A DNA stretch of 63,442 bases, counting the filler, from Welwitschia mirabilis (lineage: Eukaryota), in assembly GCA_051453625.1 (NCBI GenBank). It is 7 parts of one record of this genome, joined end to end, with 100 filler letters (N's around TTAATTAATTAA, not from the genome) between each part and the next. Parts side by side here need not be neighbours in the genome. Positions count along the whole stretch, not along the records: positions 28,904 to 47,028 come from JBOZIK010000001.1; 6 more parts are not named here. One strand, given 5' to 3'. Shown one piece after another: positions 13,848-47,128 of the stretch (positions are counted from its first letter, which is position 1; each line of letters starts with the position of its first letter). Under the pieces are notes generated by a model. It had not been told where the DNA came from. It was given only the letters and a program-made list of their open reading frames with translations, and made no database searches. The position numbers and the translations under genes are program-made.

Positions 13848-14045
13848 TCTAGCGTTGAGCTAAAGCAGAGGCCAGAGATCAAAGCAAGGAAGGTGGCCTA
13901 GAGGTCTCTCCCATGTTCAAGGTGTGGAATGGCTTGGATTCCACGCCTAGCGTTGAGCTAAAGCAGAGGCCAGAGGTCAAAGCGAGGAAGATGGCCGAGA
14001 GGTCTCTTCCATGTCAAAGGTGTGGAATGGTTTGGATTCCACTCC
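13848..14045 (+). repeat. ~99-bp tandem duplication
   Basis: CTAGCGTTGAGCTAAAGCAGAGGCCAGAG...GGTGTGGAATGG(C/T)TTGGATTCCAC occurs twice. Confidence 0.9.
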
Positions 14046-19014: not shown

Positions 19015-19114
19015 NNNNNNNNNNNNNNNNNNNNNNNNNNNNNNNNNNNNNNNNNNNNTTAATTAATTAANNNNNNNNNNNNNNNNNNNNNNNNNNNNNN
19101 NNNNNNNNNNNNNN

Positions 19115-20860
19115 CATGATATAAAAGATTTGAAATGTAAATTGCATTTAAATCTTGGTATTGAACATAGGAGGTGTAAAAAGATATTAAAAGATCTATG
19201 AAAAACTTCTTAGGGTGAGAGATTAGGATAGGCTTTATGTACCTAAAAATATCTTTAACTTTTAGTTTCAAACATGGATTGGAATCAAGAAGATAGGATT
19301 TCCCCCTAAAATTTATGAAAAGAATGATTAAGAGAAGCACATGATAAAGTTATCTTTGCAAATGAGGAAAGGATATTACTTTTTTCATATGAACTTATCA
19401 AAGGAAGAGGTTGGAAGATTTTTAAACTCAAGCCCTTAATATGATGTGGTTCATTACTATCAAGGACAAGAATGTGATTTGAAGAGGTACTTGTTTGAAT
19501 ACTTTCTTCATTGATTATATCTCCCTCTTCTTGATCATTATTATTTTCCAAGTTGATGGATTCCTTAAAAATATCATTAGAAAACTCATAGAAAGAAAAG
19601 CTTTCATTATTTGATGAAAGATATTCTAATGTTTCTTAACTTGATTCCTCTTTCTCTCTAAATAACTCCATTAATTCTAAGCTGTATTTCTCATTTGACT
19701 TGAGTTAATCATTTTCTATTGATTCTATTTCAATTCTTATCTCCATTAGTTTCAAAAGTTATATCTCATATATTGGTGGAACTCCTTCATCCTTGTAAAA
19801 CATGTGAAAGTTTGGGATGTGATCTAAAATTTCAACTCCATCTTCTTCTTCTTCTTCTTCTTCTTCTTCACTATTCTCATTATCTTGTTGCATGTTGTTG
19901 CTTTCAGTAGAAGGGGAAATGTGATCATTATTTCTATCATATATTTGCTCATGAATGCACTCTTCATTTAATGAATGATTTTCAAATACATTAACATCAT
20001 CATCTAAATAGCTATCCTCATCTTTATTATTAAAAGATATAGTCAAGTTGTCATTCTATCTCTTTTGCTTATCTCTTAATGGGTAAAATGATGAGGTTTG
20101 ATTTAAAATTTTATTCTCAACTTGAAAGAAAGAATTATAATAATTCATTCCTAAATTATTTTCATTTTCCTCAAGGTAATATGAATCACGATAGTTTTGA
20201 GGATTTTTCATTTGAATAAAAGTAACCAAATTTTCTATAAGTTTATTGATATTTTCATGGTGCTTTTTTATTGTGTTTATCAATTCTCCTATTGGATCAT
20301 TTTTTACTTCATAGTAATTCATGGGAGATGGATGGGTTGGGTAAAAATTATTGGATGAGGTTGAATCCCTAAGATTTTCTTCATTAGTTCTATATAGATT
20401 TTGAAAAGAAAAGGGAGAATAATAAGGTGGTTGAAAAGAGGAATGGGTCCTATCCCTACTCTCAACATGTTTTTGTGATGGCCTCCCTTTTTATGTAAAA
20501 GGCTCTCTAATTGTTTTCTTACATCCTCTTTGGATTCTTTTCTTCTTTTCTCAGCAAGAAGTTCTCCAACTATTTTATTACTATTATCCTCAGGTTTGTT
20601 TTTATACTTTTCAATAAGACTTTTTATACAAGTGATTCTATCACTATTCATTTTTTAAAGGAATGGGAGAAAGAGAATCTTTAGTTTAAGATGAAGGTAC
20701 GTGCTTAAAGATGATTGAGTTTTAAAGTTTTATAAATAAAATGAGCTCAAAATAATATATACACCTAGATTTTGTATTTTTATCCTTCTTTAATACTTTC
20801 TTCTATCAGCAGCTCTTTTTTCCTCCTCTGATAAGCCTTTTTCTAGACTGACCACATCAT
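19115..20860 (-). pseudogene. Degenerate N/E/D-rich ORF in the gag position of an Athila-like non-autonomous element
   Basis: Chain of minus-strand ORF pieces (20319-20651, 20056-20322, 19759-20046, 19306-19551) downstream of an Asp PBS; the KSYLLDSNPCLKL segment is homologous to ~58760-58810. Confidence 0.5.
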
Positions 20861-21228
20861 AGTTCTTACAAGTAGAAAATAATAGAAAACAAATAAAAAA
20901 CAACATTATCATCCTATTTATTATGGAGATGATAGAGGTGATGACATCACAAAAAACTAGAAATAGAAACAGAACCAAAATGAAAAATAGAAAGCAAAAA
21001 AGTCAGAAATAGGACTGTCATCCTCCTGATCATCTGGACATCACAGGAGATGACAGAAACCAATTTATTTCAAGAAAATCGAAATCTAAAAATAAAACCA
21101 AAACTAAAAAACTGCACATAAAAAACCTATAGCTCCTAATAAAATACAATATCACATAGGAAAATAACCAAACAGAAGTTTGATATACTCACCCGAATGA
21201 CGACATCCCTTGTACTCCTTAATAGACT

Positions 21229-21246
21229 TCCCTGGAAATGGCACCA
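21229..21246 (-). promoter_or_regulatory. Primer-binding site, tRNA-Asp type (Athila)
   Basis: TGGTGCCATTTCCAGGGA vs Athila consensus TGGCGCCGTTGCCGGGGA, 3 nt from the LTR end. Confidence 0.75.
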
Positions 21247-21249
21247 AGA

Positions 21250-23130
21250 TGTTACAATGTGTACTTGTGCAAGTTTTTACATTTAAAGAGATCTTATCAT
21301 TTATAATCAAAATAGATATCTTACATAATACATCATACTAGTATAGTGGGAGTAGACTTGAAATGTCGTACCTCATTAAAGTCTATGAGATGAGACTCAG
21401 GTTACTTTGCAAATGAAACTAGGAACCAAAAATAAATGATAATGTAAGAAATAAAAATATAATGAAAAATTTAATATGCAATCTAAACTAACATGCAATG
21501 CTAAAATAACCCTAACTCTACTTGCTTTCAGTCTTAATAAACTCTACTCTTAATGATCTATGTCATCCAAGAAATTGTCACTAGATCAAGGGCAATCATA
21601 AACCATAACAGTAATGAAAAAACCTAAGATTTAAATATTAAAAGAAAATCAAGTTTTATATTAAAAGAGTAACAACAACTAGGTTACAAAATAGCTGGGT
21701 TTCAATGGAGGATACTTAGCACTCCACCAAATGCACATCTTTCTGCAACACATGCAGATGGATTTTCTGCCCTTTAACCTCCTATCACGAGGATTTCTAA
21801 TGCAATAAATATAAGAAGAAGAGTCAAAAGGGGGTTTTATTTATAACAACTCATAGTAAAAAATGACAAACAATAGGTGTGGTTAGGTGCGCTCATAAAT
21901 GAAATAGACAAAATGATCAAAGGTCGCTGTTAGAGTTAGTTACATGTTAGTGTTGTCCAGAGTATCATCTGAAGGACAAGAGGGATGATAGAACATTATA
22001 AAATATGACTTAGACTGATGAATCCTCAGTGATTCCACATCAGCAGTTATCATCCTGCCTGTCATGAGGACGAAGGAGGGGATAATAGTTTTCTTTAATT
22101 ATTTCCTTAAAAAGAACTTAGAATTTTTGTTAACAATCCTTCTTCAAAGCTCTGTGCATCAAAAAGTTTCTTTAATACATCAAATTTGGATAAAAATCAT
22201 ACTTTTCCAAGGTTTCCTCTTGTATCTTCAAAATCCTCAGAATTGCACCTAAACCTGTATAGAAGTCTTATAAAACAACTGATAATACCCTATCAAATAA
22301 CTATAAATTAGCAATACAACACTACCCTTTATAATCTTATCACCTATAAAATTGTCACCAGATCAAGGGCAATATAGAATATAAGGGTCATCAAAAAAAC
22401 TAACATGCAAATATGAAAACAAAATAAAACAAGATTTTTATATTAAAAAGTAACAAGCATCTTGGTTACAAAATAGTCAGGCCTCAATGGAGGATACACG
22501 GCCCTCCACCCAAGTGCACATCTTTCTACAATGCTAAAGATGGATCTCTCACCCTTAGATCTCCTATCATGAGAATCTTTAGTGTAACAAAGATGAGAAG
22601 GAGAGTCGAAGGGGGACTTATTTATAGGAAAATACAACAGAAAATGACAAATGGTAGGTGTGAAAAGGTACACTTATTTAAAACTTAAAAATATACAAAA
22701 CGATTATGGGTCATTGTCAGAGTTAGTTACATGTTAATGTCATCCAGACGAGGATGATAACACATTACAGAATATAACTCAGAATGATGACTTAGTAGTG
22801 ATTCAGCAGTTCACATCAGCAGTTGTTGTTTTGCCTGTCATGGGGATGACAGAAGAGATGACAGTCTTCTTTGATTATTTTCTTAAAGATAACTTAGAAT
22901 TTATGTCAATAATTCTTTTTTAAAGCTCTGTGCATAAAAAAGTTTCTTTAATACATCAAATTTGGATAAGAATTACACATTTTAAAGGTTTCTTCTTATA
23001 TCTCCAAAATCCTCAGAATTGCACCTAAATCTGTATCAAAATCCTATCAAACAACTCATAAAACCCCATCAAATAGCCAAAAATTAGTGGTGTAATAGTA
23101 CCTCATAGCTACTTCTTTTATAACATATCA
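21250..23130 (-). mobile_element. Athila-like 5' LTR (21250-22342) plus tandem partial duplicate (22348-23130)
   Basis: TGTTAC...CTTATCA; 21571-22342 realigns with 22348-23130 (AAATTGTCAC(T/C)AGATCAAGGGCAAT ... TATCA). Confidence 0.75.
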
Positions 23131-24421: not shown

Positions 24422-26627
24422 CATTTGATTCTTTCATTTCATACTTGATAGCTAGAATGATATTTTCAAAAATTAAAAGGTCAATGAGTTAATAGTAGAA
24501 CTCCCAGATGGTAGTCAAAACAAAATAATTAAAGAAATACCTATGTATACATTACATGTTGAATGCTATCAATGTAATGCACAATTATGAGTATTATAGT
24601 TAGGCTATTTTGATATTATTTTAGGAATGATTAGTTTAAAAAAAGAAAGCTCAAATAGATTACTAATATAGAAAGGTTACAGTATTAGATTTAAAATGGG
24701 AAAACGTATGTTTGCTATTATATCAGGACCAATACCAGAAAAACTAATTAGGGTAAGAAAATAAAAAACAAAATTAGATATAGAAAAGTATTTACAATTA
24801 TTAAATTTTATTTCTCTCTTAAATATAAATCAAATATGTTAAATATTCTAATAGTGCAAGAATAGTTAGATGTCTTTTTGGATGAGTTACCAAGATATCC
24901 TCTAACAAGAGTAGAATATTTTGAAACAACTATTAAATAAGGAATCATGAAGGCACCATATAGAATACCTCCTGTGGAGTTGGTAGAACTAAAAACTCAG
25001 CTAATGATACTTTTATATAAAGGATTGATTAGGTCAAGTATTTCACTATGGAATGAACTAGTATTATTTGTCAAAAATAAGGATGAATAATTAAGGATAT
25101 GTGTGGATTATAGAATGCTAAATAGAGTAACAATTAAAAATAGTTATCCATTACCTAGACTAGATTATTTATTTAATCAACTAAAGTTTATCATTTTTTC
25201 TTAAAAATTAATCTTAAATTAGGATATTAACAACTTAGAATTAAAAAAGAATATATTTTCAAAGCAATACTTTGTACTAGGAATGAACATTATGAATATT
25301 GGGTAGTATTAGTTAGATTTACCAATACACTAGATATATTTTTGACAATGAATAAAATCTTTCAATCGTATCTAGATGAATTTGTAGTAGTATTTATTAA
25401 TGATGTTTTGATGTATTTATCAACTAAGGAGGATTATGAAGAACATCTAGGAATATTATTAAGATACTTTAAGAAGAAAACAATTTTATATTAGCCTTGA
25501 AAAGTGTGAATTTTGATTAATTAAGATCAATGTTTTAGGACATGTAATTTTGGAATAAGAAATTAATGTAGATAGTAATAAAGTATAGGTAGTGGTAAAT
25601 TAGTCTAATCTAAAATTAGTAACTAAGATAAGAAGTTTTCTTATATTAGATACACATTATTGAAGATTTATTCCAAACTTTTCAAAGATTGTAGTTTCCC
25701 TTACATCCTTGTTGAGAAAATATAATCTGTTTAATTGGATAACATGTTGTGATGAAGAACTTGAAAAATTAAAAGAGGCACTTGTATTTACACTTATTTT
25801 AAAAATGTTAGATCCTAGGGAAAGTATACAATCTATACTAATACTTTTGGAAAAGGATTAGGAGCAGTATTAATCTAGGAAGAAAGAGTTATTACTTATG
25901 CATCAAGATAACTAAATAATTGTGAAAGAAATTATTTAGTGCATGATTTTTTAACTAGTTGTTGTAACTCATGCACTTAAAATCTAAAAGCATTATTTAT
26001 ATGGAGAAAAGTTTGAAATTTTGATAGATCATAAAATTATAAAATACATTCACACTCATCCCAACTTGAATTTGAGGTAAATGAGATGGATGAAATTTTT
26101 ACAAGATTATAACTTAATAATAAACTATCATGAAGGAAGGATAAATGTAGCTACTAATGCACTAAGAAGAAGAAGGCATTTTATTAATTATTTAAGTACA
26201 TAAAAAGATTTATATAAATTGATTTTTGATTTATAACAAAATTATCAATTGTGAAAAAAGGTGAAAGAAGAATGAATATATGGATGTGTAGTATCTATTA
26301 ATGAATTTGTTACTTTTTAAGATAAAAATATAGTGCCTAATGAAGAATAGGTAAAGCAAATTATTTTTAAGGAATACCATAGTACACAATATGCTATCCA
26401 CTTAGGCATTTTTAAGATGTATAAAGACATCAAACAACATTTTTTATAGCTAGGAATAAAATCTAAAGTTACCAGATTTATGGGAAATTATATAACCTAT
26501 TAGCTAGTTAAAGCTAAACATCAACATCTAGCTAGAGTTTTGTATCTCATGACATTCCTTAATGGAAATGTAGAGTAGCCAATATGGATTTTATTATAGG
26601 TCTTCACAAGAGATAAAAAGGTTATGA
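24422..26627 (+). pseudogene. pol: Chromovirus-type gypsy pol (PR-RT-RH-INT start), degenerate
   Basis: [79 protein letters not shown]; collinear with 36850-39090. Confidence 0.92.
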
Positions 26628-28903: not shown

Positions 28904-31900
28904 CATTTGACTTGTATCATAGATACCTAAACTATAAAAGGTTAGAAAAAAAGGAGAAAAGGCTACTTACTTCTAGTGATGTAATCGACTATACTAAGAA
29001 TGATCAAGCCATCGGCATGCTTAATATGATATATATATATAGTAATCCTACAAACAAGAAACATTAAAATTGCCTAAGAAAAGAAGATTTTAAAGTAGCT
29101 ATTGAGCAATTATATTTACACTTATAGCAGTGAGACTGAACTCACCCAAAACTATGGATCTGTGTGCTACCAGGACACAGAGAATTGCCATGAGAGATGA
29201 ATCTTAATTAAGCTCTACAATTCACAATCACTAGGATTCAATACCACAGTTAAAATGAAGAACATGAAATTATGAAAAATATGAGAATACATAAAATGCA
29301 ACTAGGAGACCAAAAAAATAAAATCCTAGTAATGTCTAGGTCTTTCTCTACTATCTAGAGGGGGAAGGAATAGAATGAAAGAGTTATAGTTTTTGTTATA
29401 TAGTATTTATAGATTACATTCAAAATCCAATATATGAAAGATCATTCATTCTCCTTCCTAAGAATAAAAAACTCATCAAGAACATCACTTAGTAGAATAT
29501 TCGCCTTGAGGCTTCACTACTTTAAAAACGTCTTCTTAGACTCTTACATAATACACTTGAACAAGTGGCACATAGTCCAATGAAGTGGGGTATTACATTC
29601 TCTCCCTCTTAAGAAGTTTTCATTTCCAAAATCTACTTAAGCCATTTATTACTATAATAGTAATCAATATTAGATTGATTAAGTAATGGATTCAAACCCA
29701 ATACATAATCCATACATTACTTTAATAAAATAATTAATAAGTTGATTAAGTAATGAATCCAAATCAAGCTTTGATACTAAGATCTCAAAAACCAANNNNN
29801 NNNNNNNNNNNNNNNNCATGAAATTTTTTCCTCTAAAAACTAAATTACATTACATTAATTGAACATTGCAGTGAATTGATTAGATTGTGACTTGGAGTCT
29901 TACCTCTTAGTTACTCATAGAATTTACATCAAGTGAATTATGTGATGATAGATCACTTGAGTAATATCATAATCAATATTTAGGTTAATTATAAATCTCA
30001 ATTAGGAGCACACATAAGAAGTGTGTAGGTTACAATTAAGTGGTTGGTTGCACTAATAGCTAAGTAACCATCCCTACATAATCCTTATCTAAAGGTGTTT
30101 AGACCATATGTAGTTCTATTTTGGACCTTGTTCTAATATCCACCAATATGCATGAGCATAATATAGATTAAATTGATATGTATTAGTGGCATATGACAAT
30201 TCTAGACATGAAATAATGTAAGAACTTAGTATTCAAACCAACATCTACAGATATTACACACATATAAATAGACATATGCGTAATAGCTATATGTAAAAGT
30301 ATAGGAGGCAGCCTATTAAGATCTCTTAAGGTTATAACATCCAATCCTATTAATAAATTCTAATGCATGAATGATGAAAATATACATGTATATTAATATA
30401 AATTAGATATATGGGTACCTAAACATATATCTATTTATGTATAGTAAACCCCCTGGTCACTTGGCCAAAATATCCATTAGTAACTTCCATCACCAAGTAC
30501 AAGAGACCCCTGTATCTCATTAGCATCTTGATAAGTCACAATGGGAGATAAGTATCATAATAGAATATCATTATAGTAAACTCATGCAAAAATATGATTA
30601 ACACACACACGTACATATATATGCATACACATACCATTTTAGTAGGGTACGTCATAACTATTTCTTTTATAAAATAACATACTAAATCTACTAATATATA
30701 AATATAAAATGTATAAAATGCCAAAATAATTAGCTCATCTGCCACTAATTAAGTCACTAATCTTGATAAGACTTAGTACAATAGAAGTTAAGGATAAAGG
30801 TTGCTATTTAAGTGCTTAATTATTTCAATGAGCATCATAGAATAATTACTAGTATCATATCATTTTATGTATAAGATAGCAAAACTACTTGAAATACTTA
30901 ACTTATATGCTTAAACATGTAAGAAATTATATTTAAGTATACATTTTTGAAAAGAGTTAAGAATACTAAAAGCACCCATGAACATTAAAGAATTAAATTC
31001 TTTGAGAGATGGAGTGAATGTCTATAACCTTTGGAATTTACTTGTAAAACATTAAAATCCTTGCAGACGTTAACACTAAATGGTAATAAAACACTTTTAT
31101 GGAATAAAAAAAACTTCTCCTAAAATGATTTCTTAACTAAAGAACTATAGGCGGCATAAAAAAAAGGTTGAAGGCTTTAAAGTACATTCACCAAGTACTT
31201 ATGCCTATAAATCAGATCTCCATAAGATTACTAATAAATAGAATTTTTTCTTTTCTCAATGAAAATTACATAATTAATGCCTTTTTTAATAATATCAAAA
31301 TGTCCACCCATCTAAGTTAAAACCATAATGAAAAGTGGAAGAAACACTAATCTTGTTTGACTTATGTCACAGATACCTAAAGTACATAAGATTAGAGAAG
31401 AAGAAAAAAAGGCTACTTAATCCCAATGATGTCATTGGTGATACAAAGGATAGTTAAGCCATTAGTGTACTTAATATGATAAATATAGTAACCCTACAAA
31501 TAAGAAACATTACAATCACCTAAGAAAGGAATATTTTCAAGTTGCTATTAATAAATCATGTTTGTATTTATGGAAGTGGCACTAAACTCAGCCCAGTGGA
31601 TTCACATACTACTAAGGTATAGAGAATTACCATGAGAAATGAATCTCCATCAAACTCTGTAATTCATAGTCACTAAGGTTCAATCCCATAATTAAAGCAA
31701 AGAATGCATAATTATGGAAAATATGAGAAGATAGAAAATGCAATCAAAAGATGAAGAAAAACAAAATTCCAATAATTTTTAGGTTTTTCTTTGCTATTTT
31801 AGAGGAGAAGGAACAGAATAAAAGAGTCATAGTTTTTGTTGTACAATATTCGCAGAGTACATTTAAAATATAATACATGAAATTCCTCCATTCTTCTTCC

Positions 31901-32038
31901 TAAAATGAAAAAACTCACTAAGAATAGTACTGAGCAGAGTATTCAACCTAAGAATCCACTACTTTCAAAAATTCTTCCTAGACTCTTACATCACATACCC
32001 AATGAGTAACACATAGTCTAACGAAGTGGAGTGCTGTA
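28904..32038 (-). mobile_element. Non-autonomous chromovirus-type element: 5' LTR 29783-32038, PBS 29768-29779, ~185-bp internal region, PPT 29598-29612, 3' LTR 28904-29597 (cut by gap)
   Basis: 28909-29597 aligns with ~31359-32038; minus-strand PPT TTAAGAGGGAGAGAA then TGTAATACCCC; PBS TAGTATCAAAGC. Confidence 0.75.
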
Positions 32039-32287
32039 AAATCCAATTATATCTTTAACCAAATTTCTCCTTAATAATCATAAAGTTATTTGTAACCATG
32101 ATAACCTTAATTCCTAATAGCTACAAAATTAATTATATCCAATAATTTTAAATCATGAGTAAAATCAATTATATCCTTAATAATACTAGATTCCAAGAAA
32201 ATCCTAACTTCTAAATAAGCATTAATTTCATCATATCTCCCAATAGTCATGAATTTAATTATATTCATAATTTTCCTACTCCTTAAA

Positions 32288-35200
32288 TATCACATCTAGA
32301 TTTTCAAGGTTCAAGACTCTAAATAACTCTTAATGTTGTAGAGTCTTAAGCTAGTTTAATTATTGCATGTATTTTTCTGATTCCTAGAGGTGTAATTATA
32401 TCATGAAAATTTTATGCTATAATTCCTCTCATTTTGTAATAGCCGTAATATAACCTTTTTGAAAATTCTTAGTGATTTAATTTTGATTCCTTAGTGCTTA
32501 AATTATTGTAACTATTGCACTTTTATCTATTTAAACTAGAAAATAGTTTTTATGTGATTTTTGGAAATTACTTCTTATGCAACTCATTTAAACTTTCTCA
32601 TTGTAATAATTGCATGATGAACATTATTATTTATTGTTATAATATTAGTACACCCATTGGCTTGGCAAGAAAATAAATAAGAGTTACAAAATCCCCACCT
32701 CTTACACCACCTTTACCACTCTCCTTTATAATGGTACCTCCTCATGTTCTTGTGTCATTTCACATTCCACATCCTTTAATATAAATAGGACCTTCTTCTC
32801 CTCTCATTTTGTACCTTAAAAAAGGTCGTGTTATTGAATCTTAGATCTTGGAAAAGCCTTAAAACCTTAGAGCCTTGGAATATTCAAGAGTTCTTGAGTC
32901 TTCATTTTAATTCAAGTATTGATTTTAGTTTTCACTTATTCTTTGCATGGTCCTTATCTGTTGCATTTTAGTTAGTATTTATTTTGAATGATTTCAATCT
33001 TATTTAATTTTTGTATTGTTTGTTCTTGCATATCATTGAAGTTTGTTTGTTTAGTTCATCTTACATACATCTCATGTTAGTGTTGTCTTACATCACAATC
33101 CTTAACCATCTTTTTTAATTCTTATGATGAGTTTTGTTATGTATTTTAACTTCTTTGCCTACCACTTGTGTGGACTTCAGGGAGTGATACTCTTTGAAGG
33201 GAGTCTTGAGGCTATGGGATCAAACTTTTAGGATGAATAGGGAGAATATATTTCTTTTTTATTTGAGAACCCCTAACATTTCATACCTTATCATAAACCA
33301 TACTGGGAATTGTGAAGGTTACAGCTCATGCCATGCTTTCTTGTACAAGAAATGTTTCAAGGAATGAGGTAAAGAGGAGTTAATGCTAGGTACCTTCTAT
33401 TTGATTTTACATTTTTGGAAGATCTATGTATTTTAAACTTTTATGTGATGTCTTTGTAATTCTTAAGGAATAAATGCTGAAACAATTTTTCCCTTATTTG
33501 TAAGCTATTAGAGAAATATACCTATTTTGATTGTGAATCAAGAATTTGTTATAGATAGTTTCATTTACAAGGAATCTTCTTTAGATATTATTGATTTCTA
33601 TTGATTATTAAATTTCTTTAATGATAGTTTATTTTTCTATTTGAGCATAAAAATATCAGGAATGTTTAAGAGGATTTCATGAGCACATAAATAATTTGGA
33701 GGCCTATATCTTATTGGATAATTAATAATAAGATAGTTTATTGAGAACTTACTTATAATTATAAGGATATGACTCCAGGTAGATACTTGATTTTATAATG
33801 CATGATAGAAAATCCATATGTTAAGAAAATAGCATAAGATAAGGGGAAGATCCACATCTGGGGTTGTTTGAATCTAGTTTATCAAAAGGGTGGATTATGG
33901 AATCAAAACATCAACCTTTCATTTAGCATCTACTCTTCTTATCATTACATCAAGGGAATAGTTGTTGGAAACCTCAGAATAAAGTTTCCACAGTCTATTT
34001 TTGTAACCAAATATTTATTCCACCTCACTTGGTTTTATGTATTTAATAGCATATCCTTTTTTTTAGCATTAATGAATTCTATTAAGTTGAGATTAGCAAA
34101 CACTTAATTCATTTTTTCAGCAGTAATGCCTTTTTCTAACTACAATCCTTTGGAAGGAACCGTATCATCTGAAGCTAAGCTTTATGATATGTTTCTCATC
34201 TATAGAGGAGAGGACACTAGAAGAATGATTGTTGATCATCTTCATGCTTTTTTTAAAAAGGTAAGGTTGAGAATAATTTTAGACAGCCTTAGTATAAATA
34301 AATGAAAGAATATTAGCTCCACCATATTGAAGGGAATTAAAAGTAGTGCCATCAATATATGGATATTTTCATAGAACTATGCAGAAACATGCTAGTACTT
34401 GGAAGAGTTAGCACATATGTGCAAGTTTGATGGCATCATGATTCCCCTATTCTTTTATTATGTTGAGTTGCTTCATGTTAGGTGTCCTAAAAATAGTCAA
34501 GAATTCAGTTATTTAGATTGTGATTATGTTAAAATGTAACTCCTATATGTTCATTTAGGATTAATATTCTAGTATAGGTTTAGTTTAGGTCATAGAAAGT
34601 TCTTAAGAGCATCCCATCTATATGCCATTACAACACATTATCACATCAACAATTTATTGATCATCCCTAATGCCTGTAATGTATTTCTCTTCTATTACAC
34701 CATTCTTTTCTATTAGAAGTGTTACTTTTTGAGACAATTGAAGCAAGCACGTATGTAGTATGTCTTAGAAGAATTCTTTTAATAATTGGCCTCTCTAACT
34801 CCAACATTGTTCCCTTCCCTCTACGCACCTAAATGGCCCTCTAAAGCATTACCTCCTACTAATAGTTTCCTCATCTATGCCTCTTAATGATTCCCAAATC
34901 ATTTAATTCATACCTCTAGAATTTATGATTAGGTATTTCCCATATGCTGGTATAGCCTTCATACCTCCTTTCATTCTTTGTAGCTACTAAATCATAGCTT
35001 GATAAAGTGACAGCTTGACAATGCCAACGCATTTTGAAGCTTAGGCTCCATCTGAACAGAAGTAAAGAAATGTTCAAATCAATAGTAGGATGTAGCATTG
35101 CAAAATTATAAGCCCTTCTTGTTACCATGATTGATCTTAATATTTGTATCAATTAATCCCTTTTATTATTTTGAAGAGCAACAAGGACCTTTGTGAATTA

Positions 35201-35721
35201 AAATTTAGTCCTTGCCTCACAGATCATCATTGTTTACATTTCAATCAAATTTTTAAAATAAGCAATAATGGTATGATCGATTATCACACACGCTCGTAGA
35301 TAGGGATGTCTTTAGTTTAAATCTCTACAAGGCTTCTTTCTTTTACTTTAAAAAAATAAAATTTTTCTTTCTTAAATATAGGACCAACTTAGAATGTTTA
35401 TTAGAAATCTTTAAAATTATATACCTTTGCCTATTTTCATGATAAGAAAAATTTAGAGAAAAATAGAATATAATATATTTTTTATTTTATTAATTACTAT
35501 CCCTCTCTTAGCTAGCCATTTTTCATTCATAATCTTAAGACATTACCTCATCATATTCAAAAACTCAAGGTAAACATGTGCATTATGTTCATATTCTATT
35601 TGAATCCATTAAATAATATTTTTATAGGCTAAGCCAAGATATTAGCTATTATTTCTTACAATGCGAATTTTATTATAGCCTTCACTTGTTGTTGGATGAT
35701 ATTTTTAATTGCGATGTTACA
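32288..35721 (+). repeat. 5' LTR (~3.43 kb)
   Basis: TATCACATCTAGA...GATGTTACA, collinear with 40119-43343. Confidence 0.92.
34126..34497 (+). pseudogene. TIR-domain exon (TIR-NLR/TIR-only type) captured in the 5' LTR
   Basis: Single frame MPFSNYNPLEGTVSSEAKLYDMFLIYRGEDTRRMIVDHLHAFFKKVRLRIILDSLSINK*KNISSTILKGIKSSAINIWIFS*NYAETC*YLEELAHMCKFDGIMIPLFFYYVELLHVRCP matches the plant TIR consensus YDVFLSFRGEDTR..F.DHL / FLD / IFS.NYA.S.WCL.EL / IP.FY.V.PS.VR. Confidence 0.92.
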
Positions 35722-35825
35722 TTTTTGATATTAAAGCACTAGGTTGGAATGTTGGATTTTATAATTGCCATAATTAATTATTTACAACTAAAAGCTTGAT
35801 AGGTTTAATAGATGGCTCCAAAATG

Positions 35826-38800
35826 AACAGTACCATCACCCCTCTATATGAGGTCTTTGGTGATTTTTGTAGATCATTTGGTAGATGGACTTTATAATAA
35901 GATCAATGAGGAAGATATAATTTAAAAATTCATGATGTGGTTTAGGCTTATAAATTCTTAACATTTGAAGGATCTGATAATGTGACTGAAGTGGGAGCTT
36001 GGCTTATTTCTATAAGTAAGGAACTAGAGATTTTTAATTTCACATTAGAACCAAAAATCATCTTAGTTATTCACTAGCTTAGGAAAAGTGCAGCTCTTTG
36101 ATGGGATACAGAAAATGCACAATCCACATTTTCTAATCATTTGTCTTGAGAGGACCTTGGTAAATAATATCGAGCTAGGTACATATTAGAATATTACCAA
36201 AATGCCAAGGCAGAGGAATTATGCAATCTTAAGTAAGGATCCTTGACAATAGTCCAGTATGAGAATAAGATTATGTAATTACTAAAATACATATCAAAAA
36301 TGTCTAGCTCTGAGGAAATGAAAATATGAAAACTAGTGGAAAGTCTTCATCCTATAATTTAAAAATAGGTTAAGCTATTCTAGCCAAGGTCCTTTGTGGA
36401 AGCCTTGAAGAAGATCAGACTTACCAAAGAATCATGGAGTAATAGTAGAAATTTCGAAAACAAATGAGATTATCCATAGGATAAAAAGGGAACTTAACCT
36501 AGAAAAATACCCTTCTTCAGGAGCATAAGAATATTTAGTGATAGGAATCAGCACAAAGTTACTATAGTAAATGAAATGGAGGTAAGACAACCCCATGAAA
36601 AAGGAAAGACATCCTTGGCACCATTAAAGACCATGCCTGTTGCAGGGATCAAAGTTAAAAATCCTAGATCTGTTAGATGTTATAACTATGGAAAATCCTA
36701 TATGATCAAAAATTATCATATAAAGATAAGAGAAAAATATGTACATGGCATGGTTAATATGAGGAAGTCGTATGCATTAATATATAAGGAGGACATTCAA
36801 CCATCAGTAATATTAGAGAATACAAGTACCTTATTTAATGCTTCTATCAAAATTTTATTAGATTTTACAGCGATAGATTCTTTTATATCCTTCTTATTAT
36901 CTCAAAAGTTGTTTACAAAAATTCACACTAAAAACAAAGTAGCTGTGAAAGTTCTTGATGGTAGCATGGTTAGGGCTCTTAGCAAAACTCCTATATGTGA
37001 TATTATTGGGGATTATAGTTTTTAGGTCTCATTTTTTATTTTAGATTTAGAATATTTTGATGTTATATTAGGCATGAACTATTTATAGGAAAATAAATCT
37101 CAAATAGATTACTTTTTAAGGTAGGTCACTATGTTTAGATCAAGCAGTGAGAAAGNNNNNNNNNNNNNNNNNNNNNNNNNNNNNNNNNNNNNNNNNNNNN
37201 NNNNNNNNNAAATGATGAAAGAAGTGAAGAGAATGAAAACCTTTGAAATACTTTTATTATTTCTTTTCTCCAATCCCAACCAGAAATTTTTGACATACTA
37301 GTAATGAAGGAATATGCATATTTATTTTCTAAAGAGCTACTAGGTTATCCACCAAGTAGAAACGAAGATTTTAAGATAACTCTTAAGCCTAGCACTGAAC
37401 CAATCTTGAGAACACCTTATAGAATGTTTCTCATTGAAATAGTAAAGCTAAAGACTGAAATAACTACTCTACTAGGTAAAGAATTAATTAAACTAAGTAT
37501 AACATCATGGGGTATACCATGTTTTTGTGTCGAAAAGAAGAATGATAGTTTAAGACTTTGTGTGGACTATAAGATGTTGAATAAAGTTACTATTAGAAAT
37601 AGATATTCCTTGCCCAGGATTTAGGATTTATTTAATCAACTTAAGAATGCAATATTTTTCTCCAAAATTGATCTTAAATCTGGATATGTCAGCTTAACAT
37701 CAAGGAAGAAGATGTTTATAAAACAGCCTTTAGAACTAAGTATGGGTATTATGAATTTAGAGCAGTTTTGTTTGGTCTTACTAATGCAATAGCAACATTC
37801 ATGGTAGTGATGACTAATATCTTCAGAAACTATCTAGATGATTTTAATATAGTTTTTATTAATGATGTATTAGTATATTATACAATAAAGGAGGCTTGTG
37901 AGAAATATTTGAGGATAGTTTTAGATACTTTATGGAGAAATCACTTCTATGCTAATCCTGATAAGTGTGAGTTCTAACTATCTAAAGCTTCTTAGGCCAT
38001 GTAATTTTATAAGGTAGGATCAATGTGGATAATGATAAGGTCCAAGGTATCATGAATTGGCCTAAACCTAAGTCAGTATTAGAAGTGAGGAGTTTTCTTG
38101 GCCTTGTAGGATACTATAGAAGGTTTATTAAAAATTTTTCTAAATTATCTTCTCTATTAACCATATTGCCAAAAAAGAATAAACAGTTTGATTGCTCAAA
38201 ATTATGTGATGAAGCTTTTTAGACATTAAAATCAAATCTTGTATCAGCACTAATTTTGAAAATGTTAGAACTAGGGAGGCCTTACATAGTTTACACAGAT
38301 GCCTTGGGAGAAGAATTAGGACTTTTAATGTAAGAAGGCTCAATGATAGCCTAGCATCTAGGCAGTTAAAAAATCACAAAAAGAATTATCCTCTTCATGA
38401 CTTAGAACTAGCAGCAGTATTTCATGAATTAAAAATTTCGTGGCATTATCTTTATGACAAATAGATAGAATTTTGGACAGATCAGAAGAGCCTAGAGTAT
38501 ATTCATAAATAATCTAATTTGAATCTTAGGTAAAGAAGATGGGTAAAATTTTTATGGAATTATGATTTAACAGTGAACTATCATGTAGAAAGGCTAACAT
38601 GGTTACAGATGCCTTAAGCTAAAGGAGGCATGAATTTTATAATCTGAGAGTAGATAGTAATTTATTATGCCTAATAAATGATTTATTAGGTACAATAGAA
38701 TTGTCACCTATGCAAGAGAGTTAGAGAAACTCAAATGGAAGGATTTATAGTTTCAAAAGACTAGTTAGTGGTTAGTATGCTATTTGAAGAAGATTGTGAT

Positions 38801-40085
38801 ACCTGATGTGGCAAGAATAAAACACATAATCTTTAAAGAATTTCATGCAACTAAATATGCTATCCACCCAGGAGTTAATAAGATGTACAAGAATATCAAG
38901 CAGTACTATTGGTTACTAAGAATGAAGTAAAAAATTGCAAATTACATAGACAAATGCATAACTTATTAATTAGCTAAGGCAAAACATAAACATTTTGTAG
39001 GATTTCTATATTCCCATAATGTTCTAGAAGGGAAATAGGAAATTATAGGTATGGATTTTATCATAGGTTTGCTTAGAACCAAGGAAGAATAGGATTCCAT
39101 CCTAGTTATAATAGATCTTCTAACTAAGAGCATATATTTTTCCTAGTGAAAACAACTAACATGGCTAAATGAATTATAAGAGGCTATGTCAAAAATATTT
39201 TTAAGCTTCATGGAGTACCTAAGATGGTAATCTTAGACTAAGATAATAAATTTACATCTAGGTTTTAGATAGCTGTTCATAAGGAGTTAGGCATGAAACT
39301 GAATTTAAGTAAAACCTTTTATCCTCAGACTGATGGGCAACTAAAAGAACAAATCAAATATTAGAAGATTTGTTACAATCAGTTCTATTGGATTTTGAAG
39401 GATCTTAGTCAGATCATTTGCCTCTTGTAGAATTTAGTTATAATTATAGTATTAAGATGCAATTGGATTTGCACTATTTAAAGTCTTATATGGAAGAATA
39501 GATAGAACTCTAGTTTCTTAATTCGATGTAGCAGATAAGAGGATACTGTGAGTTTTTTCTACTAAACACTTAAAGAGAATGTTGAAAAAATCAAAGAGAC
39601 TTCAAACAGTTAAGGATAGACAAATAAAATATGCAAATCAACACAAAAAAAATGTAGAATTCCAAGAAGGGGATCATGTATTTCTCAAGTGTTCCCCATT
39701 CAAGGAAGTTTTTAGATTTGGTAGGAAAGGTAAATTGACCCTCAAATTTATAAGACCATATCAGATCTCTAGAAGAATTGGACCCATGACATATAAATTA
39801 GCTTTACCATCATAGTTATCTATGTCACATAATGTCTTTGATGTGTCATTGTTGAGGAAATGTATTTTCAATGGGACCAAGATTATTCTAGTTTAAGATG
39901 TAATTATCCTTTTTTATTGTACCATAGAAACTCAACCACTTAACCTATTAGATCAAAAGGAAATAACACTTTGAGGGAAGACAATTAAATTATATAAGAT
40001 TAAATGGTTATGGTAGACAAAAGATAAAGTGACATGGGAAACTCAAAATGGCATCTTACAGTGGAAGCTTGAACTACTAATAAGT
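35826..40085 (+). pseudogene. gag-pol: gag-pol of the full-length chromovirus (many stops and frameshifts), with C-terminal chromodomain
   Basis: TFEGSDNVTEVGAWL (gag); ILLDFTAIDSFIS (PR); [24 protein letters not shown] and IVFINDVLVY (RT); EVRSFLGLVGYYRRFIKNFS; NYPLHDLELAAV (RH); FYPQTDGQ and GRKGKLTLKFIRPY (INT); LLDQKEITL*GKTIKLYKIKW..VTWE (chromo). Confidence 0.95.
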
Positions 40086-40118
40086 TTCCAGGAGGAAACC
40101 TCTTAAGGGATGGAGAAA

Positions 40119-43100
40119 TGTCACATTTAGACTTTCAAGGTCCAAGACTCTAAATAACTGCTAATGTTATAGAGCCTCAAGCTAGTTTAATCATTGCATG
40201 TATTTTTCTGATTCCCAGAGATTTAATTATATCGTGAAAATTTTTTGCTATAATTCCTCTAATTTTTGAATAGCCATAATATAACCTTTGTTGAAAATTC
40301 TTAGTGATTTAATTTTCATTCTTTAGTGGTTAAATTATTGTAACTACTGCACTTTTATCTATTTAAATTGAAAAATAGTTTTTATGTGGTTTTTGAAAAT
40401 TGCTTGTTATGTGACTCATGTAAAATTTGTCATTGTAATAATTGCATGATGAGCATTTTGATATATTATTATGATATTAATGTACTCATTGGCCTAACAA
40501 GGAAATGAATAAGGGTTATGGAATCCCTACCACTTCCACCACCTTTACCACTCTCTTGTATGACGATGCCTCCTCATGTTCTCATGTCCTTTCACATTTC
40601 ACATCCTCTACTATGAATAGGACCTTCTTCTCCTCTCATTTTGTACCTTAAGAAATCCCATGCTATTGAATCTTGGAGCTTGGAAAAGCCTTAAAACCTT
40701 GAAGCCTTGGAATCTTTAGGAGTTTTTGAGCCTTTATTTTAAGTTGGGTATGATTCTTGGTTTTTATTTATTCTCTACATGGTCCTTATCTCTTGCATCT
40801 TAATTAGTCTTTATTTTGAATGATTTCAATCTTTATTTAATTTTTGTATGGTTTTTTCTTACATATCATTGAAGTTTTCTTGTTTGGTTCATATTACATA
40901 CATCTCATATTAGTGTTATTTTACATTGCAACCTTTACCTATCTTGTTTAAGCCTTGTGATAAGTTGTGTTGTGGATTTTGACTTGTTTGGATATCAACC
41001 TTGGCTTGGATATCTATAAATAAGAGAATTGAAACTAGCCAAGGTAACCACTTGTTTAAACTTTATGGAGTGATACTCTTTGAAGGGATTCCCAAGGCCA
41101 TAGAACAATACTTCTAGGATGAATAGGGAAAATGTGACTCATTTACCATTTGTCCCTCCTCGATTGTGTGCAACTAGATTACTAAAATCTACTATGGAGT
41201 AATAGTAAAAGAAGATAAATTTAAAATGAAGCCTAGGTTCTATCTTGATTCTTCTTGTTATTCCTTCTTCATTTTGGAACCCTATACCATTCCATACCTT
41301 GTCATGGACCATACTGGGAACTATGAGGACTATAGTTCTCATGTTAGGCTTGCTTATGTAGGAAATGTCTCAAGGAATGAGGCAGAGAGGAGTTACTGCT
41401 AGGTGCCGCCTATGTGATTTCACATTTCTAGAAGTTCTATGTATTTTGAACTTTTTGGTAATGTCTTTGTAATTCTTGAGGAATAAATATTGAACTTGTA
41501 TAAACAAATTTTCCCTTTTTTGTAAGCTATTAGAGAAATATACCTATTTTGATTGTGAACTAAGAATTTTTTTATAGATACTTTAATTTATAAGGAATCT
41601 TCTTTAAAGAGTATTAATTTTTTTCTATTATTAAATTTGTTGAATGATAGTTTCTTTTACTATCTGAGCATAGAAATACCATGAATGTCTAAGAGGATTT
41701 TGTGAGCACATAAATAATTTGGGGGTCTATATTCTATCAGATAATCAATAATAAGCTAGTTTATTAAGAACTTAATTATACTTATGAGGATATAATTCCA
41801 AGCAGACACTTGATTTTATAATGCATGATAGGAAATCCATATGTTAAGGAAACAGCATAGGACAACGGGGAGACCCATGTTTGGGGCAGTTGGAATTTTG
41901 TTAAATATCTTTAACCTTATTAGTAAGGTATATTTACAGAAACGGTAGGTTATGGAATTGAAATTGGAATTTTGTTAAATATCTTTAACCTTATTAGTAA
42001 GGTATATTTATAGAAACGGTAGGTTATGGAATTGAAATACCAACCTTTTGTTTACCATCCGATGTTCTTACCATTACATCAAGGAAACAGTTGTCGCAAA
42101 TGTTAGCAAAAAGTTTTTGTACTCTTTGTAACCAAAGATTTATTTCACCTCATCTACTTTTGTGTATTTAATAGCATATCCTTTTCTATTTAGCATTGAT
42201 AGATTCTATTAAGTTGAGGTTAGCAAATGCTTAATTCACCTTTTTCTAACTACAATCCTTTGAAAGAAATCTTACATGTTTCTCAGCTTTAGAGGCGAGA
42301 ACACTAGAAAAACAATTGTTGATCACCAAAATGCAAGGCCGAGAATATTTTTAGACAGCCTTAGCATACACAAAGAAGAGAAGATTATCTCCACCATACT
42401 GAAGGGGATTGAAAGTAGTGCCATCTATGTACCAATATTTTCATGAAGCGCCTGTGCAGCACGTCTTAGGAGCGTTCTTTCAGCAATTGGCTCTGTAACT
42501 CCAACATTGTTTCCTCATCTGTGCCGCTTAACGCTTCCCAAATCCTTCAATTTATACCTCTGGAATTCATGATTAAGCATTTCCCTACGCCCGTTCAGCC
42601 TGCGTTCCTCCTTTCATTCTCTGCAGTCGTTGAACCGTAGCTTGATAGAGTGATAGCTTGACAACGCCAATGCATCTTAGAACGTTGGGCTTGAGAGGAC
42701 GTTCGAATCAATAGCCAGACACAACGTTGTGAAATTTTAAGCCCTCCTCATTACCATGATCAACCTTAATATTTGTATGAATCGACCCATTTTATTCTTT
42801 TGGAGAGTAACTAGGACTTTCGCAAATTAAACTTTAGTCCTCACCTTGCACATCATCCTCGTTAAACCAAAATTTTCAAATAAGCATTAATGGTATGATA
42901 GGTTATCACATGTGCCTATAGATAGGGAGGTCTTTAGTTTGAATCTCTTTAACGCCTTTTTTCTTTTATTTTTAAAAAATAAAATTTCTCTTCTTGAATC
43001 TGGGGCCAACCTAGAATGTTTATTAGAAATTTCTAAAATTATGTATTTTAGCCTATTTCCATGATAAGGTAAAATTTAGAGAAAAAATCAATATAATGTA

Positions 43101-43343
43101 TACTTTATTCCAACTAATTACTATCCCTTTCTTAGCTAGCCATTTTTCATTTCATAGTCCAAGACATTATCTCATCGTATTCAAACACTTGAGCTAAACA
43201 TGTGCATTATGTTTGTATTCTATTTGAATCCATTATATAATATTCTTGTAGGCTGAGCCCAAATATTAGCTATCATTTCTTATGATCGAATTTTATTTTA
43301 AGCTTCACTTGTTGTTGGATGATATTTTAATATGGTCGTTATG
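40119..43343 (+). repeat. 3' LTR (~3.22 kb), including a ~74-bp tandem duplication at 41890-42037
   Basis: TGTCACATTTAGA...GGTCGTTATG followed by TSD TTAAA. Confidence 0.92.
42276..42446 (+). pseudogene. TIR-domain fragment in the 3' LTR (second half deleted)
   Basis: MFLSFRGENTRKTIVDHQNARPRIFLDSLSIHKEEKIISTILKGIESSAIYVPIFS*. Confidence 0.9.
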
Positions 43344-44029
43344 TTAAATATATATTAAATCACATCCATATTAATCCTAATAATTATAAAGATTACATTG
43401 ATGATAAACCTAGCACCTTAATAATCTTATAAGTTGATTATATTTGGGATAGTTCTAAAGTATTCATAAGTTTAACTATAACCCCAACCCCTAGATGATC
43501 ATGATGCTAATCATATTTATGTAATTTTAAATCCATAAACAAACAAAGAGGGATGATGAATTCAAGTTATTAAAGACTCTATTACCTTATAGCTATAGAT
43601 GATACTCACTAAAAAGAATTACAATTATCTTAAGAATTTAGAACAAGACCCTTACATAATTCATTAAAGAGCTTAACCTTTTGCAAAAGTATAAATACAT
43701 AATATAATACCTTGTAATTAGATACCCTTAGAAATAATCAAATCTCTAACCAAGATAGCCATCCTAAATTATGTACTCGCATAACCTTAAAGTGAAAATC
43801 CATATTCATAACTTATAAACCTTATCTATTAAAAATAAAAAAAAGGGAATAAACTTGAAGTTATAAAAGAGGACCAATCACCTCATAATGATAGCGATCT
43901 TCTTCCTAAGATTATAAAAATATTTTTAAGCTTAAGATTTAATAAGATTTATCCTATTTCCAAAGGTAATCTCATAAAAAAAAATCTTTTTAAGTTTTTT
44001 TTCCATCATAGTCAATTAAACCTTGAGGC

Positions 44030-47028
44030 CATGTTAGTTGCACTAAGTAATCAATATCAACAGAATTCACAAGAGAGCCATCAATATAATGATGGAAATA
44101 AACCTTCATTCAACCTTAATCCAGAAGCATTGATGAATACATTCATGTAATTCCTATCATAAATAATAAACCAAGGTTAAAACCCATAAGTAAACAATGA
44201 TATCAATCAACCTAAGGAAGTGGGTGTGGAGAAATTAATTCAAACATGTATTAAGCTAAATCCACCAAAGTTTATAGGAGGTTGAGATCCTTCTAAAGAG
44301 GAAGCATGACTAAGTGATATTGGAAAGGTTATAGGTACCTTAGAATGCGATGAATACGAAAAGGATTCTTTAGCTATTTATATATTACCACGAGAAGCCA
44401 ACCTATGGTGGAAAATAGAAATGATTAAGTTAGAACAGCTAGTACTTTTATGGAGGGAATTAGAGCACCTCTTTAAGAAGAGGTATATCACTAATTTCTA
44501 TATTCACTAAAAGGTTACAGAATTCTACAATTTAAGATAAGCCCCTAACGTGACCATAGCATCTCAAAAATGAAAATTTATAGAGTTATTAAGATATGCA
44601 TCACATATGCATCTAGATGAAGAAGCTAAAGCAAATCTCTTTATTGATAGTCTTCTTTCTTTTATTGCTGCCAAAAGTATCCATGTTTCAACCTAAGGAT
44701 CTAATAGAGGCCATAGGAAAGTAGAACAAAAGTAGCAAAGACAATAAGAAAATAAGAACAAAATTCCTTCATAGAGACATCTCTTTAAGGAAAATTGACC
44801 ACAAATGTCTTATTAAAATAAGCATTAGCACCTCAATAAAAATAATGTTAGTAGTAGTTATAGGAAAAACATAAATTTTAATCAACCTATGTAGGCTTCA
44901 TTTAAAAGAAACTAGAATGTCCTAATTAAGACTATGCAAGTAATCAACCTCAAAGATCCAATTTTTAGAAAATTCCTACTTAGTATTAGTACTAAAATTA
45001 GTATAATAATGGAAATAGATGCTTTTAATATAAGGTAAATCATAAAGAGAAAGAATATTCATTACATAATGGAAACCCTCCTAGATAATATAACTAGAAA
45101 ATCCTCAAAGATTACAAAGCACTTCTCAATTAATAGGATGACTTCGGGCAATAATAGATAATTAAGGGGTGTAATTTCAAGGCTTTGTCATAAAAGGTAA
45201 GGCTTTGATTAATAATAAAGAAGTAATTATTTTATTTGATTAGAAAAAACTCATTTCTTGATATCTCCTAAGATTATTATAAAAGAAAAATTATGTTGTG
45301 CTCCAATTGAGGAACGCATAGAGCTAGCAAATGGGTCCATGCTTAAGATTAATTAGTAGGCCCAAAATTGTACTCTATCCATAAGCATGAAATATTTTCA
45401 GATATAATCAATTATTATCAACTTAGAAAAATATAACATTATTTTGGATATTAATTAATTAATGCAAAATAGAAAAGTTATAAATTGTAAAAAACATAAA
45501 GTAGAAATGATGAATCTGGGTCAAAGAATAATCTTTCAAGATCATTACAAATCAATAAGGGAGAGTAAAATTAATGCAAAGCATATAAAAAAAGAAATTA
45601 ATGGGGTATCACCAGTTTATATGCTATATCTAAAACCAATTAGCTTAAAAGAAGGAGAAAATCTAGTAAAGAATATACCAAGAGTCCAAGATTATCTTAA
45701 TGCATTTACAAGAAAATTACCAAGAATTTCACCACTATGGAAAGTTGAGTTTCTATTGAATTGATCCCAGGAACCTAACCAATTTTTAAGGTATCATATA
45801 TAAGGTCTCCTATAAAAATGAAAGAATTAAAAATTTAGCTTAAAGAACTCTTACAAAAAGTCTTTATTCATCCTCGTGTATCACCATGGGGATTACTTGT
45901 ATTATTTGTAAATAAGAAAGATGGAACACTAAGATTATGCATTGATTATAGGTAGCTAAATAAGGCTACCATCAAGAACAAGTATCTACTACTAAGAATA
46001 AATGACCTTTTTTATTAGCTCAAGGAAGCTAAGATATTCTCAAGGAAGATATTCATAAAACAACATTTAGAACTTGCTATGGGCATTATGAGTTCATTAT
46101 TATGCCTTTTGATTTAACTAATGCCCCTATAGTATTTATAAATCTTATGAATTACATCTTTTAGCCACATCTTAATTTCTTTGTAATATTATTTATTAAT
46201 AATATCCTCATTTATTCCAAGACTTATGAATTGCATGAGAAACACTTGAGAATAGTATTGCAAACTTTATAGAATCACCAATTATATGCTAACATGGAAA
46301 AGTACTCTTTTTGAAAGGAATTCATTCAATTTGTAGCACATGTAACATCCAAGAAAGGTATATTAGTGGATCAAGATAAAGTTAAAGCAATCATAAAATG
46401 GATAATACCTAAAAATATTATTGAGATTGAAAACTTTCTTGGTCTTACTGGTACTATCATCGATTCATCTTCAACTTCTCCGAGATAGCTTCTTCATTAA
46501 CAAGACTTTTAAATAAAAATAAAAACTTCCAATTAATAAAAAAATTTCAAGAGTTATTTGATTATCTTAAAGAATGCTTAACTAGTGCTCTAGTATTACT
46601 AATACTAGGTAATTCCAAGACCTTTTTAGTTTATACTGATGCATTTTAAAAAGGTTTTGAAGTAGTTCTTGAATAAGCTAAAGGAGTAATAGCTTATGGA
46701 TTAAGACAACTTAAAAGTCATAAGAGAAATTATTCCATTCATGATCTTGAATTAGCTATAATAATTTTTGCTTTAAAATTTTGGAAGCATTATCTTTAAG
46801 GTATAAAAATTTAAGTTTAGACAGATCATAAGAGTCTGAAATACATTTTTACCGAATTAAACTTAAACATTAGGCAAAGAAGACAGATGGAATTTCTATG
46901 TGATTTTGATCTAGAAATTTTATACCATAAAGGTAAGGGAAATAAGGTTGAAGATGCTTTTAGTAAACAAGGTTATCTCAAAGTAATCATAGAAGTTCAA
47001 AGTTAAATTTATACCATTATGTTAGAGG
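44030..47028 (+). pseudogene. gag-pol: Older chromovirus gag-pol (probable host of the 32288-43343 insertion), cut by a gap
   Basis: KLNPPKFIGG*DP...EANLWW (gag); [39 protein letters not shown] and FINNILIYS (RT); NYSIHDLELA and [10 protein letters not shown] (RH). Confidence 0.9.
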
Positions 47029-47128
47029 NNNNNNNNNNNNNNNNNNNNNNNNNNNNNNNNNNNNNNNNNNNNTTAATTAATTAANNNNNNNNNNNNNNNN
47101 NNNNNNNNNNNNNNNNNNNNNNNNNNNN

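Follow-up and report, generated by a model that had tools for sequence, protein, structure and literature searches.

Immune-receptor genes in long terminal repeat (LTR) retrotransposons and the capture of gene fragments by transposable elements (TEs) are both already known. As far as the cited portions of these articles go, genes for receptors of the nucleotide-binding leucine-rich repeat type (NLRs) have been retroduplicated inside LTR retrotransposons in Capsicum and other crops (PMC5664825), 425 LTR elements of maize carry gene fragments (PMC2774510), and in gymnosperms such capture is common, with about 400,000 fragments in each genome and 19.8% of them transcribed (PMC13477047). LTR-mediated retroposition by template switching has likewise been described (PMC5131818), and in BARE-2 foreign retroelement sequence entered the BARE-1 LTR by "abnormal template switching" (PMC13317346). 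Here, we analyzed a stretch of 63,442 nucleotides from Welwitschia mirabilis (assembly GCA_051453625.1; the whole stretch is referred to as the window, and all positions count along it), in which a degenerate Ty3/gypsy LTR retrotransposon at 32288-43348 (+ strand; LTRs of 3.4 and 3.2 kb) carries, in each of its two LTRs, a remnant of the Toll/interleukin-1 receptor (TIR) exon of a TIR-type NLR (TNL). We consider it likely that the 5' end of a TNL transcript was captured once into a Ty3/gypsy LTR, as passive cargo that is now dead. A full-text literature search found no account that describes, as such, LTRs with a TIR exon inside them; article supplements, which possibly list cases, lay outside its scope.

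The better preserved of the two remnants is a pseudo-exon at 34126..34497 (+) in the 5' LTR (32288..35721, +; 3434 bp). It begins 1839 nt into the LTR, lies in sense orientation, and corresponds to TNL residues 1 to ~122 with no frameshift and three stops, at 34303 (TGA), 34372 (TAG), and 34393 (TAG). Translated with X at the stops, the frame matched the Pfam TIR profile PF01582 well above its curated cut-off (E 2.7e-11, 44 bits, cut-off 21.3), as the first-pass annotation of this DNA would have led one to expect, and reached 27.8 bits against TIR_2, slightly below the cut-off of 28. When the entire 5' LTR was scanned against Pfam in six frames, TIR was again the sole domain (E 1.3e-9, with TIR_2 overlapping). 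A phmmer search with the TIR frame against 1.84 billion representative proteins returned 2782 matches at E ≤1e-3, 231 of them at E ≤1e-10; word-indexed protein searches with the same frame returned no match, whereas this full HMMER search did. Ten of the matches were looked up; Cryptomeria japonica accounts for six of them and Taxus chinensis for one, and Coffea canephora and Punica granatum are also represented. The top match in a single stretch (P0012) is a named TAO1-like disease-resistance protein of C. japonica, a TNL, with which the frame shares 57 of 121 residues (47%, BLASTP). Query residues 1-121 align to subject residues 1-120; hence, the TIR piece begins at the TNL's own residue 1.

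The same alignment bears out two details that had been proposed from the DNA alone. W and C of P0012 are matched by a stop codon at 34393 and Tyr at 34396, respectively, which agrees with the view of the TAG-TAC at 34393 as a decayed WC, and the GAG at 34405-34407 faces the Glu of LDE in P0012, such that the Glu of the WCLxEL motif is indeed kept. The conserved Glu of plant TIRs is the NADase catalytic residue, and the 5' copy thus retains Glu at the catalytic position; it also retains the start codon. The frame had further been said to match most of the TIR consensus with three stops. The match and the stops stand, but the extent does not: the PF01582 match spans positions 2-83 of 179 of the hidden Markov model (HMM), so the domain is incomplete. 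The TIR of P0012 extends past residue 120, and the window has no continuation of the domain. In tblastn searches of the window with 10 TNL queries, TNL residues 1 to ~125 alone found a match, and neither NB-ARC nor LRR was detected. The 5' piece therefore comprises about the first two-thirds of a TIR domain, with the C-terminal third missing.

The remnant in the 3' LTR (40119..43348, +; 3230 bp) lies at 42264..42515 (+), where a frame at 42276-42446 is preceded by 17- and 23-bp out-of-frame gaps and accompanied by one 15-bp gap. A 371-bp gap in this LTR, corresponding to 34374-34744 of the 5' LTR, deletes the second half of the TIR piece, and the stretch with the catalytic-position Glu is gone. 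The first-pass annotation had named this a homologous TIR, and it does read as quoted there; PF01582 remained under its cut-off (17 bits, E 0.005), but tblastn with the TNL queries gave a significant match (best E 7e-12 at 42276-42443). The open reading frame is consequently broken in both copies, by three stops in the 5' LTR and by out-of-frame gaps in the 3' LTR. Our best reading of these sequences is that the TIR piece was truncated from the outset and would have no function now.

Reads from RNA provided an indication of where the captured piece ends. Raw reads of two RNA runs (X14 and X17; 12.5 and 11.1 million records searched) were compared with positions 31500-36500, and 22 and 6 reads, respectively, aligned at ≥80%, most of them partially and with continuations unlike the window. 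None of the 28 reads in the two runs aligned at ≥95%, which gives no support for expression of the locus and is no proof of its silence. Three X14 reads continue past 34492 with letters that differ from those of the window, and these letters, read in frame by eye, resemble P0012 after residue 120. As judged from their sequence, these three reads derive from an expressed TNL relative and not from the TIR locus itself. The point where they diverge puts the 3' boundary of the captured piece at ~34492, which is within the TIR exon. Moreover, a variant in X14 reads at 34102, a position that precedes the ATG, suggests that the piece includes some 5' leader. The likeness to the expressed TNL relative accordingly runs from 34102 or further upstream to ~34492.

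The age of the TIR piece was compared with that of the LTRs that hold it. The LTR pair is in direct orientation (self-BLAST, MAFFT); its identity is 82.2% across 2924 alignment columns, and the counts of 365 transitions and 156 transversions yield a Kimura two-parameter (K2P) distance of 0.209. At this distance, the substitution rate of 1.3e-8 applied in PMC5664825 would put the insertion at about 8 million years ago, and a slower conifer rate of about 2.2e-9 would put it at about 47 million years ago. For the TIR segment at 34101-34373 the distance is 0.196, close to that of the LTRs as a whole; hence, the TIR was already in the complementary DNA (cDNA) that integrated. Distances were 0.178 for 32288-33837, 0.261 for a low-copy block at 33838-35340 that contains the TIR piece, and 0.208 for 35341-35721, and other LTR segments ranged from 0.156 to 0.291. 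The TIR segment is no younger than the LTR pair, and no sign of later LTR-to-LTR conversion of the TIR was seen. Gene conversion between the LTRs of one element is reported from large plant genomes, and the TIR could in principle have entered a single LTR after integration, through DNA-level insertion or repair, and then have been converted onto the other LTR. Such a course would agree with a block that is confined to this element among the contigs of two DNA runs (below), but the block is not less diverged than its surroundings (block, 0.261; TIR, 0.196; 5' part of the LTR, 0.178), any conversion would need an age close to that of the insertion, and a heterology of 1.5 kb would have to be carried. 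We therefore regard this course of events as improbable.

To gauge how often the TIR block occurs in the genome, Logan contigs of two DNA runs (X1 and X2) were aligned to 31500-36500 at ≥80% likeness, with the caveat that summed contig depth does not equal copy number and that contigs drop rare variants. Summed depth was 15-25 in the flank (31500-32000), rose to ~18,000-23,000 over an upstream repeat and the start of the LTR (32001-32334), and then fell along the LTR to 2260-6700 (32335-32835, the 5' part), 134-1984 (32836-33670), and 37-57 (33671-33837). It dropped to 1.3-26 across the LTR's low-copy middle, in which the TIR piece is located (33838-35340, +), and rose again to 24-75 (35341-35674) and to 127-466 across the LTR end and the internal region (35675-36500). 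Contigs per place numbered at least 108-127 at 32100-32229, just upstream of the LTR, and at least 73-111 at 32327-32497, in the 5' part of the LTR; for X2, two contigs account for the TIR block. One of these, X2 record 10 (33626-35427, 1802 nt, depth 6.11, one mismatch), is the locus itself, and contigs identical to the locus have a depth of 6-7. At 34102 and 34297 the total X2 depth is 9.91, of which 3.8 is contributed by one further contig, and this contig carries G and C at the two positions, which are the letters of the 3' LTR. Within the stated limits, the TIR block is present in the X1 and X2 contigs at ≥80% solely as the two LTRs of this element, although a few further, more diverged TIR copies may exist below 80% likeness.

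These depths bear on the interpretation first put forward for the locus, in which the TIR is a standing part of an amplifying LTR family and forms a promoter-linked cassette that either functioned as a TIR-only gene or supplied small interfering RNAs (siRNAs) against host TNLs. Presence in both LTRs does mean that the TIR passed through at least one reverse transcription, the 5' copy retains its start codon and the Glu at the catalytic position, and the expressed TNL relative is still close enough for RNA reads to align at 80%-95%. In gymnosperms, captured fragments have also been linked to methylation of the donor genes, in the cited portion of the survey (PMC13477047). Nonetheless, the TIR block has single- to low-copy depth in both DNA runs and is covered by two contigs in X2, about one-third of the TIR domain is absent, the 5' copy has three stops and the 3' copy out-of-frame gaps, and the RNA reads at ≥95% number 0 of 28. 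Taken together, we consider such a family very unlikely. The first-pass annotation had expected every insertion and every solo LTR to spread the TIR, which is not supported by the depth of the block in contigs of the two DNA runs at ≥80% likeness (1.3-26, compared with 2260-6700 at 32335-32835) or by the two X2 contigs, and the promoter-linked TIR-only cassette is a weak proposition given the missing third of the domain, the stops, the gaps, and the RNA reads. Its statement that the TIR already belonged to the LTR of a transposing family holds for the integrated cDNA (K2P 0.196 versus 0.209), but spread through a family is not supported.

The low-copy block is 1.5 kb long and exceeds the part that is derived from a TNL, such that other foreign DNA came along with the TIR. 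This would suit a mobile carrier of the TIR, such as a Helitron or a DNA transposon of the Pack type, that was nested in the LTR of a progenitor, which then retrotransposed once, and such carriers often capture gene fragments, according to the cited portions of two reports (PMC2774510, PMC13317346). However, neither LTR contains inverted or direct repeats that bracket the block (only short, chance-like pairs were found), the six-frame scan of the 5' LTR revealed no further Pfam domain, and the DNA runs show no repetition of the block, unlike what an abundant carrier would produce. A nested carrier is hence a doubtful source of the TIR.

Based on the anatomy of the element (detailed below), the TIR homology, the equal age of TIR and LTRs, and the low copy number, we favor a single capture at the RNA level. 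The captured piece would have comprised some 5' leader, the start codon, and ~122 codons of a host TNL transcript. During minus-strand synthesis through U3, where the TIR piece is probably located, reverse transcriptase (RT) would have switched template around codon 122 of a co-packaged TNL messenger RNA (mRNA), proceeded as far as, or close to, the 5' end of that mRNA, and then switched back. U3 would have been copied once and then duplicated, leaving the piece in both LTRs of the new copy; because U3 duplication alone has this outcome, an amplifying family need not be invoked. The new chimera would then have inserted into a repeat of very high abundance, with TTAAA as its target duplication, would not have multiplied detectably, and would subsequently have decayed neutrally through transition-rich change, stops, and deletions. 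The stops and out-of-frame gaps do indicate neutral decay. Sense orientation, a partial mRNA, and a boundary at the 5' end would all fit capture by template switching.

Several points weigh against this scenario. Both the RNA-level mechanism and the U3 location of the piece are what we infer from the arrangement of the LTRs. Copies below 80% likeness, or those lost by the assembler or the filter, escape the count, and a small, old subfamily may thus exist. The LTR is a mosaic in which a highly repetitive 5' part is followed by a private middle and by a 3' end that is moderately repetitive; depth in the 5' part is 10-100 times that of the 3' end (28-169). Recognizable TNL sequence makes up just ~0.4-0.5 kb of the 1.5-kb low-copy block. 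A 5-bp TTAAA duplication requires that the 3' LTR ends at 43343 or has lost its last 5 nt. Finally, the ratio dN/dS between the two TIR copies is 0.59, below 1 (Nei-Gojobori, two copies, 66 codons, Sd 9, Nd 23), a value that comes without a significance test, from a method that ignores transition bias, and from too few changes to carry weight.

A capture of this kind could also have had consequences for the host. The new chimeric LTR would have contained, in sense, a TNL leader, a start codon, and a Glu-bearing TIR stub, and its silencing might have given rise to small RNAs identical to the donor TNL clade. We attach only a very small probability to this chain of events; if true, it would be a concrete and datable epigenetic conflict between a TE and an immune receptor in a gymnosperm-like genome. 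Expression of a truncated TIR peptide from the LTR at some time in the past is less likely. A family-wide, promoter-linked TIR cassette would have borne on the origin of TIR-only genes and on TNL-targeting small RNAs. The more general point is that one reverse-transcription accident can put a host gene fragment into both LTRs, and caution is warranted, since presence in both LTRs does not imply spread through a family.

The remaining parts of the element are as follows. The 5' LTR starts with TA, compared with TG in the 3' LTR, and ends in ...ACA; the last 5 nt assigned to the 3' LTR may instead belong to the target duplication. A decayed primer-binding site (PBS) at 35726..35737 (+) lies 4 nt past the 5' LTR and agrees at 9 of 12 positions with what we take to be the PBS for initiator-Met tRNA, the three mismatches all being transitions. 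A polypurine-rich tract (PPT) at 40091..40118 (+) directly precedes the 3' LTR. The internal region between the LTRs (35722..40118, +) is spread over three frames with many stops and includes a 54-N gap (37156-37209). Pfam matches, all on the + strand, are in the order gag-PR-RT-RH-INT along 35949-39863, namely gag (Ty3 capsid, 35949-36410), protease (PR; RVP_2, 36798-37145), RT (RVT_1, 37693-37980), RNase H (RH; 38354-38563), and the integrase (INT) zinc-binding (H2C2, 38823-38981) and SH3 (Tf2-1, 39669-39863) domains. The integrase core had no Pfam match at E ≤10 and by eye appears divided over two frames. A weak chromo-like stretch occupies the expected place (39981-40091, +; PF00385, E 0.13, 12.7 bits, cut-off 25.1). 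The longest stop-to-stop frame of the internal region is 175 amino acids, and coding capacity is not intact. The element is thus a structurally complete yet dead Ty3/gypsy retrotransposon. It had been introduced as a full-length chromovirus. Full-length is apt with regard to its LTRs, PBS, PPT, and domain order, but coding capacity has been lost, and with a chromo match below cut-off the element is a candidate chromovirus. Within the 3' LTR, a 74-bp unit is tandemly duplicated at 41890-42037 with 99% identity; this duplication is confined to that LTR and is a young local event inside an otherwise old LTR.

The borders of the element were examined with the same DNA runs. A putative target-site duplication TTAAA lies immediately upstream (32283..32287), and a downstream TTAAA (43344..43348) is likely its second copy, although on the window alone the duplication is ambiguous between TTAAA and TATAT. 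Seventy-one X2 records match the window through 32290 and then diverge with a consensus of their own. Compared by eye with 43349-43380, this consensus is identical at 24 of 30 positions, with four transitions and two indels. The repeat that is broken before the 5' LTR therefore resumes after the 3' LTR, which identifies the element as an insertion and lends support to the TTAAA duplication. No uninterrupted copy of the flanking repeat was found within the window. A segmental tandem duplication, considered as the origin of the 3.4-kb repeats, is excluded by the PBS and PPT, by the presence of just one internal region, and by the evidence from the insertion site.

The repeat into which the element inserted (32001-32290) is short and extremely abundant (summed contig depth ~18,000-23,000), with break points inside it at 32039, 32064, 32140/32141, and 32198. 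It may be part of the leader or LTR of a gypsy remnant downstream. A second Ty3/gypsy internal region, distinct from the first, follows at 43349-47028 with matches to gag, RVP_2, RVT_1, and RNase H and is interrupted by an N run at 47029-47128, and this is probably the host element into which the TIR-bearing element inserted. The second internal region shares 201 bp at 68.7% identity with the first, and the internal region at 43350-47000 was rejected as the partner of the 3' LTR, since merely these 201 bp are common to both. A third gypsy RT/RNase H remnant (24943-26601) is 65% identical over 1700 bp to 37402-39068.

Further features of the window lie apart from the element. Upstream of it, direct repeats of ~690 bp at 28906-29591 and 31356-32032 (74.6% identity, 2450 bp apart) may represent a small LTR-like or tandemly duplicated unit. 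An open stretch of 105 amino acids at 49320-49637 (-) resembles, by eye, Ty1/copia reverse transcriptase. Regions 4001-6000 and 10001-14000 have a G+C content of 0.39-0.45, compared with ~0.28 elsewhere, and their + strand is strongly skewed toward purines (GC skew 0.23-0.34); the tandem arrays found there were all short. The window contains 20 N runs, including eight pairs of 44-N runs, each pair parted by 12 bases that, where seen, read TTAATTAATTAA and resemble a scaffolding linker. The assembly is a draft, and distances over gaps are therefore unreliable.

Set against described systems, the present case seems ordinary for such plant genomes. In maize, Bs1 is reportedly an LTR retroelement with transduced host gene fragments, its cargo being internal and part of a chimeric open reading frame, whereas in the present element the cargo is inside the LTR and lacks an open frame. 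The retroduplicated NLRs of Capsicum resemble it in that immune-receptor sequence was mobilized by an LTR retrotransposon via an RNA intermediate; those NLR genes, however, are situated between the LTRs and are often both gene-like and amplified, in the cited portion of that study (PMC5664825). Such NLRs are recognized by an NB-ARC domain, with or without LRR, between the LTRs, while the 10 TNL queries located the piece in this window within the LTRs; it amounts to the first ~122 codons of a TNL in one dead element. The exon fragments captured by TEs in gymnosperms are closer, as far as the cited portion of that survey goes, in that a fragment of a host coding exon resides in a TE as single-fragment, decayed, and untranslatable cargo (PMC13477047). 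The best TIR matches for the present genome are conifer TNLs, akin to the gymnosperm setting of that survey, and the present fragment lies inside the LTR and is hence duplicated within one element. Genome-wide surveys already count captured fragments by the hundreds of thousands in each gymnosperm genome, and the present case adds little to them. With template-switch chimeras, the locus would have in common that partial mRNA or foreign RNA is joined in sense into retroelement cDNA, the hallmark of those chimeras being microhomology at the junctions, according to the cited text (PMC5131818). BARE-2, in the cited portion of its description, likewise illustrates that the LTR itself can receive an insert, but BARE-2 became a family and the present copy did not (PMC13317346).

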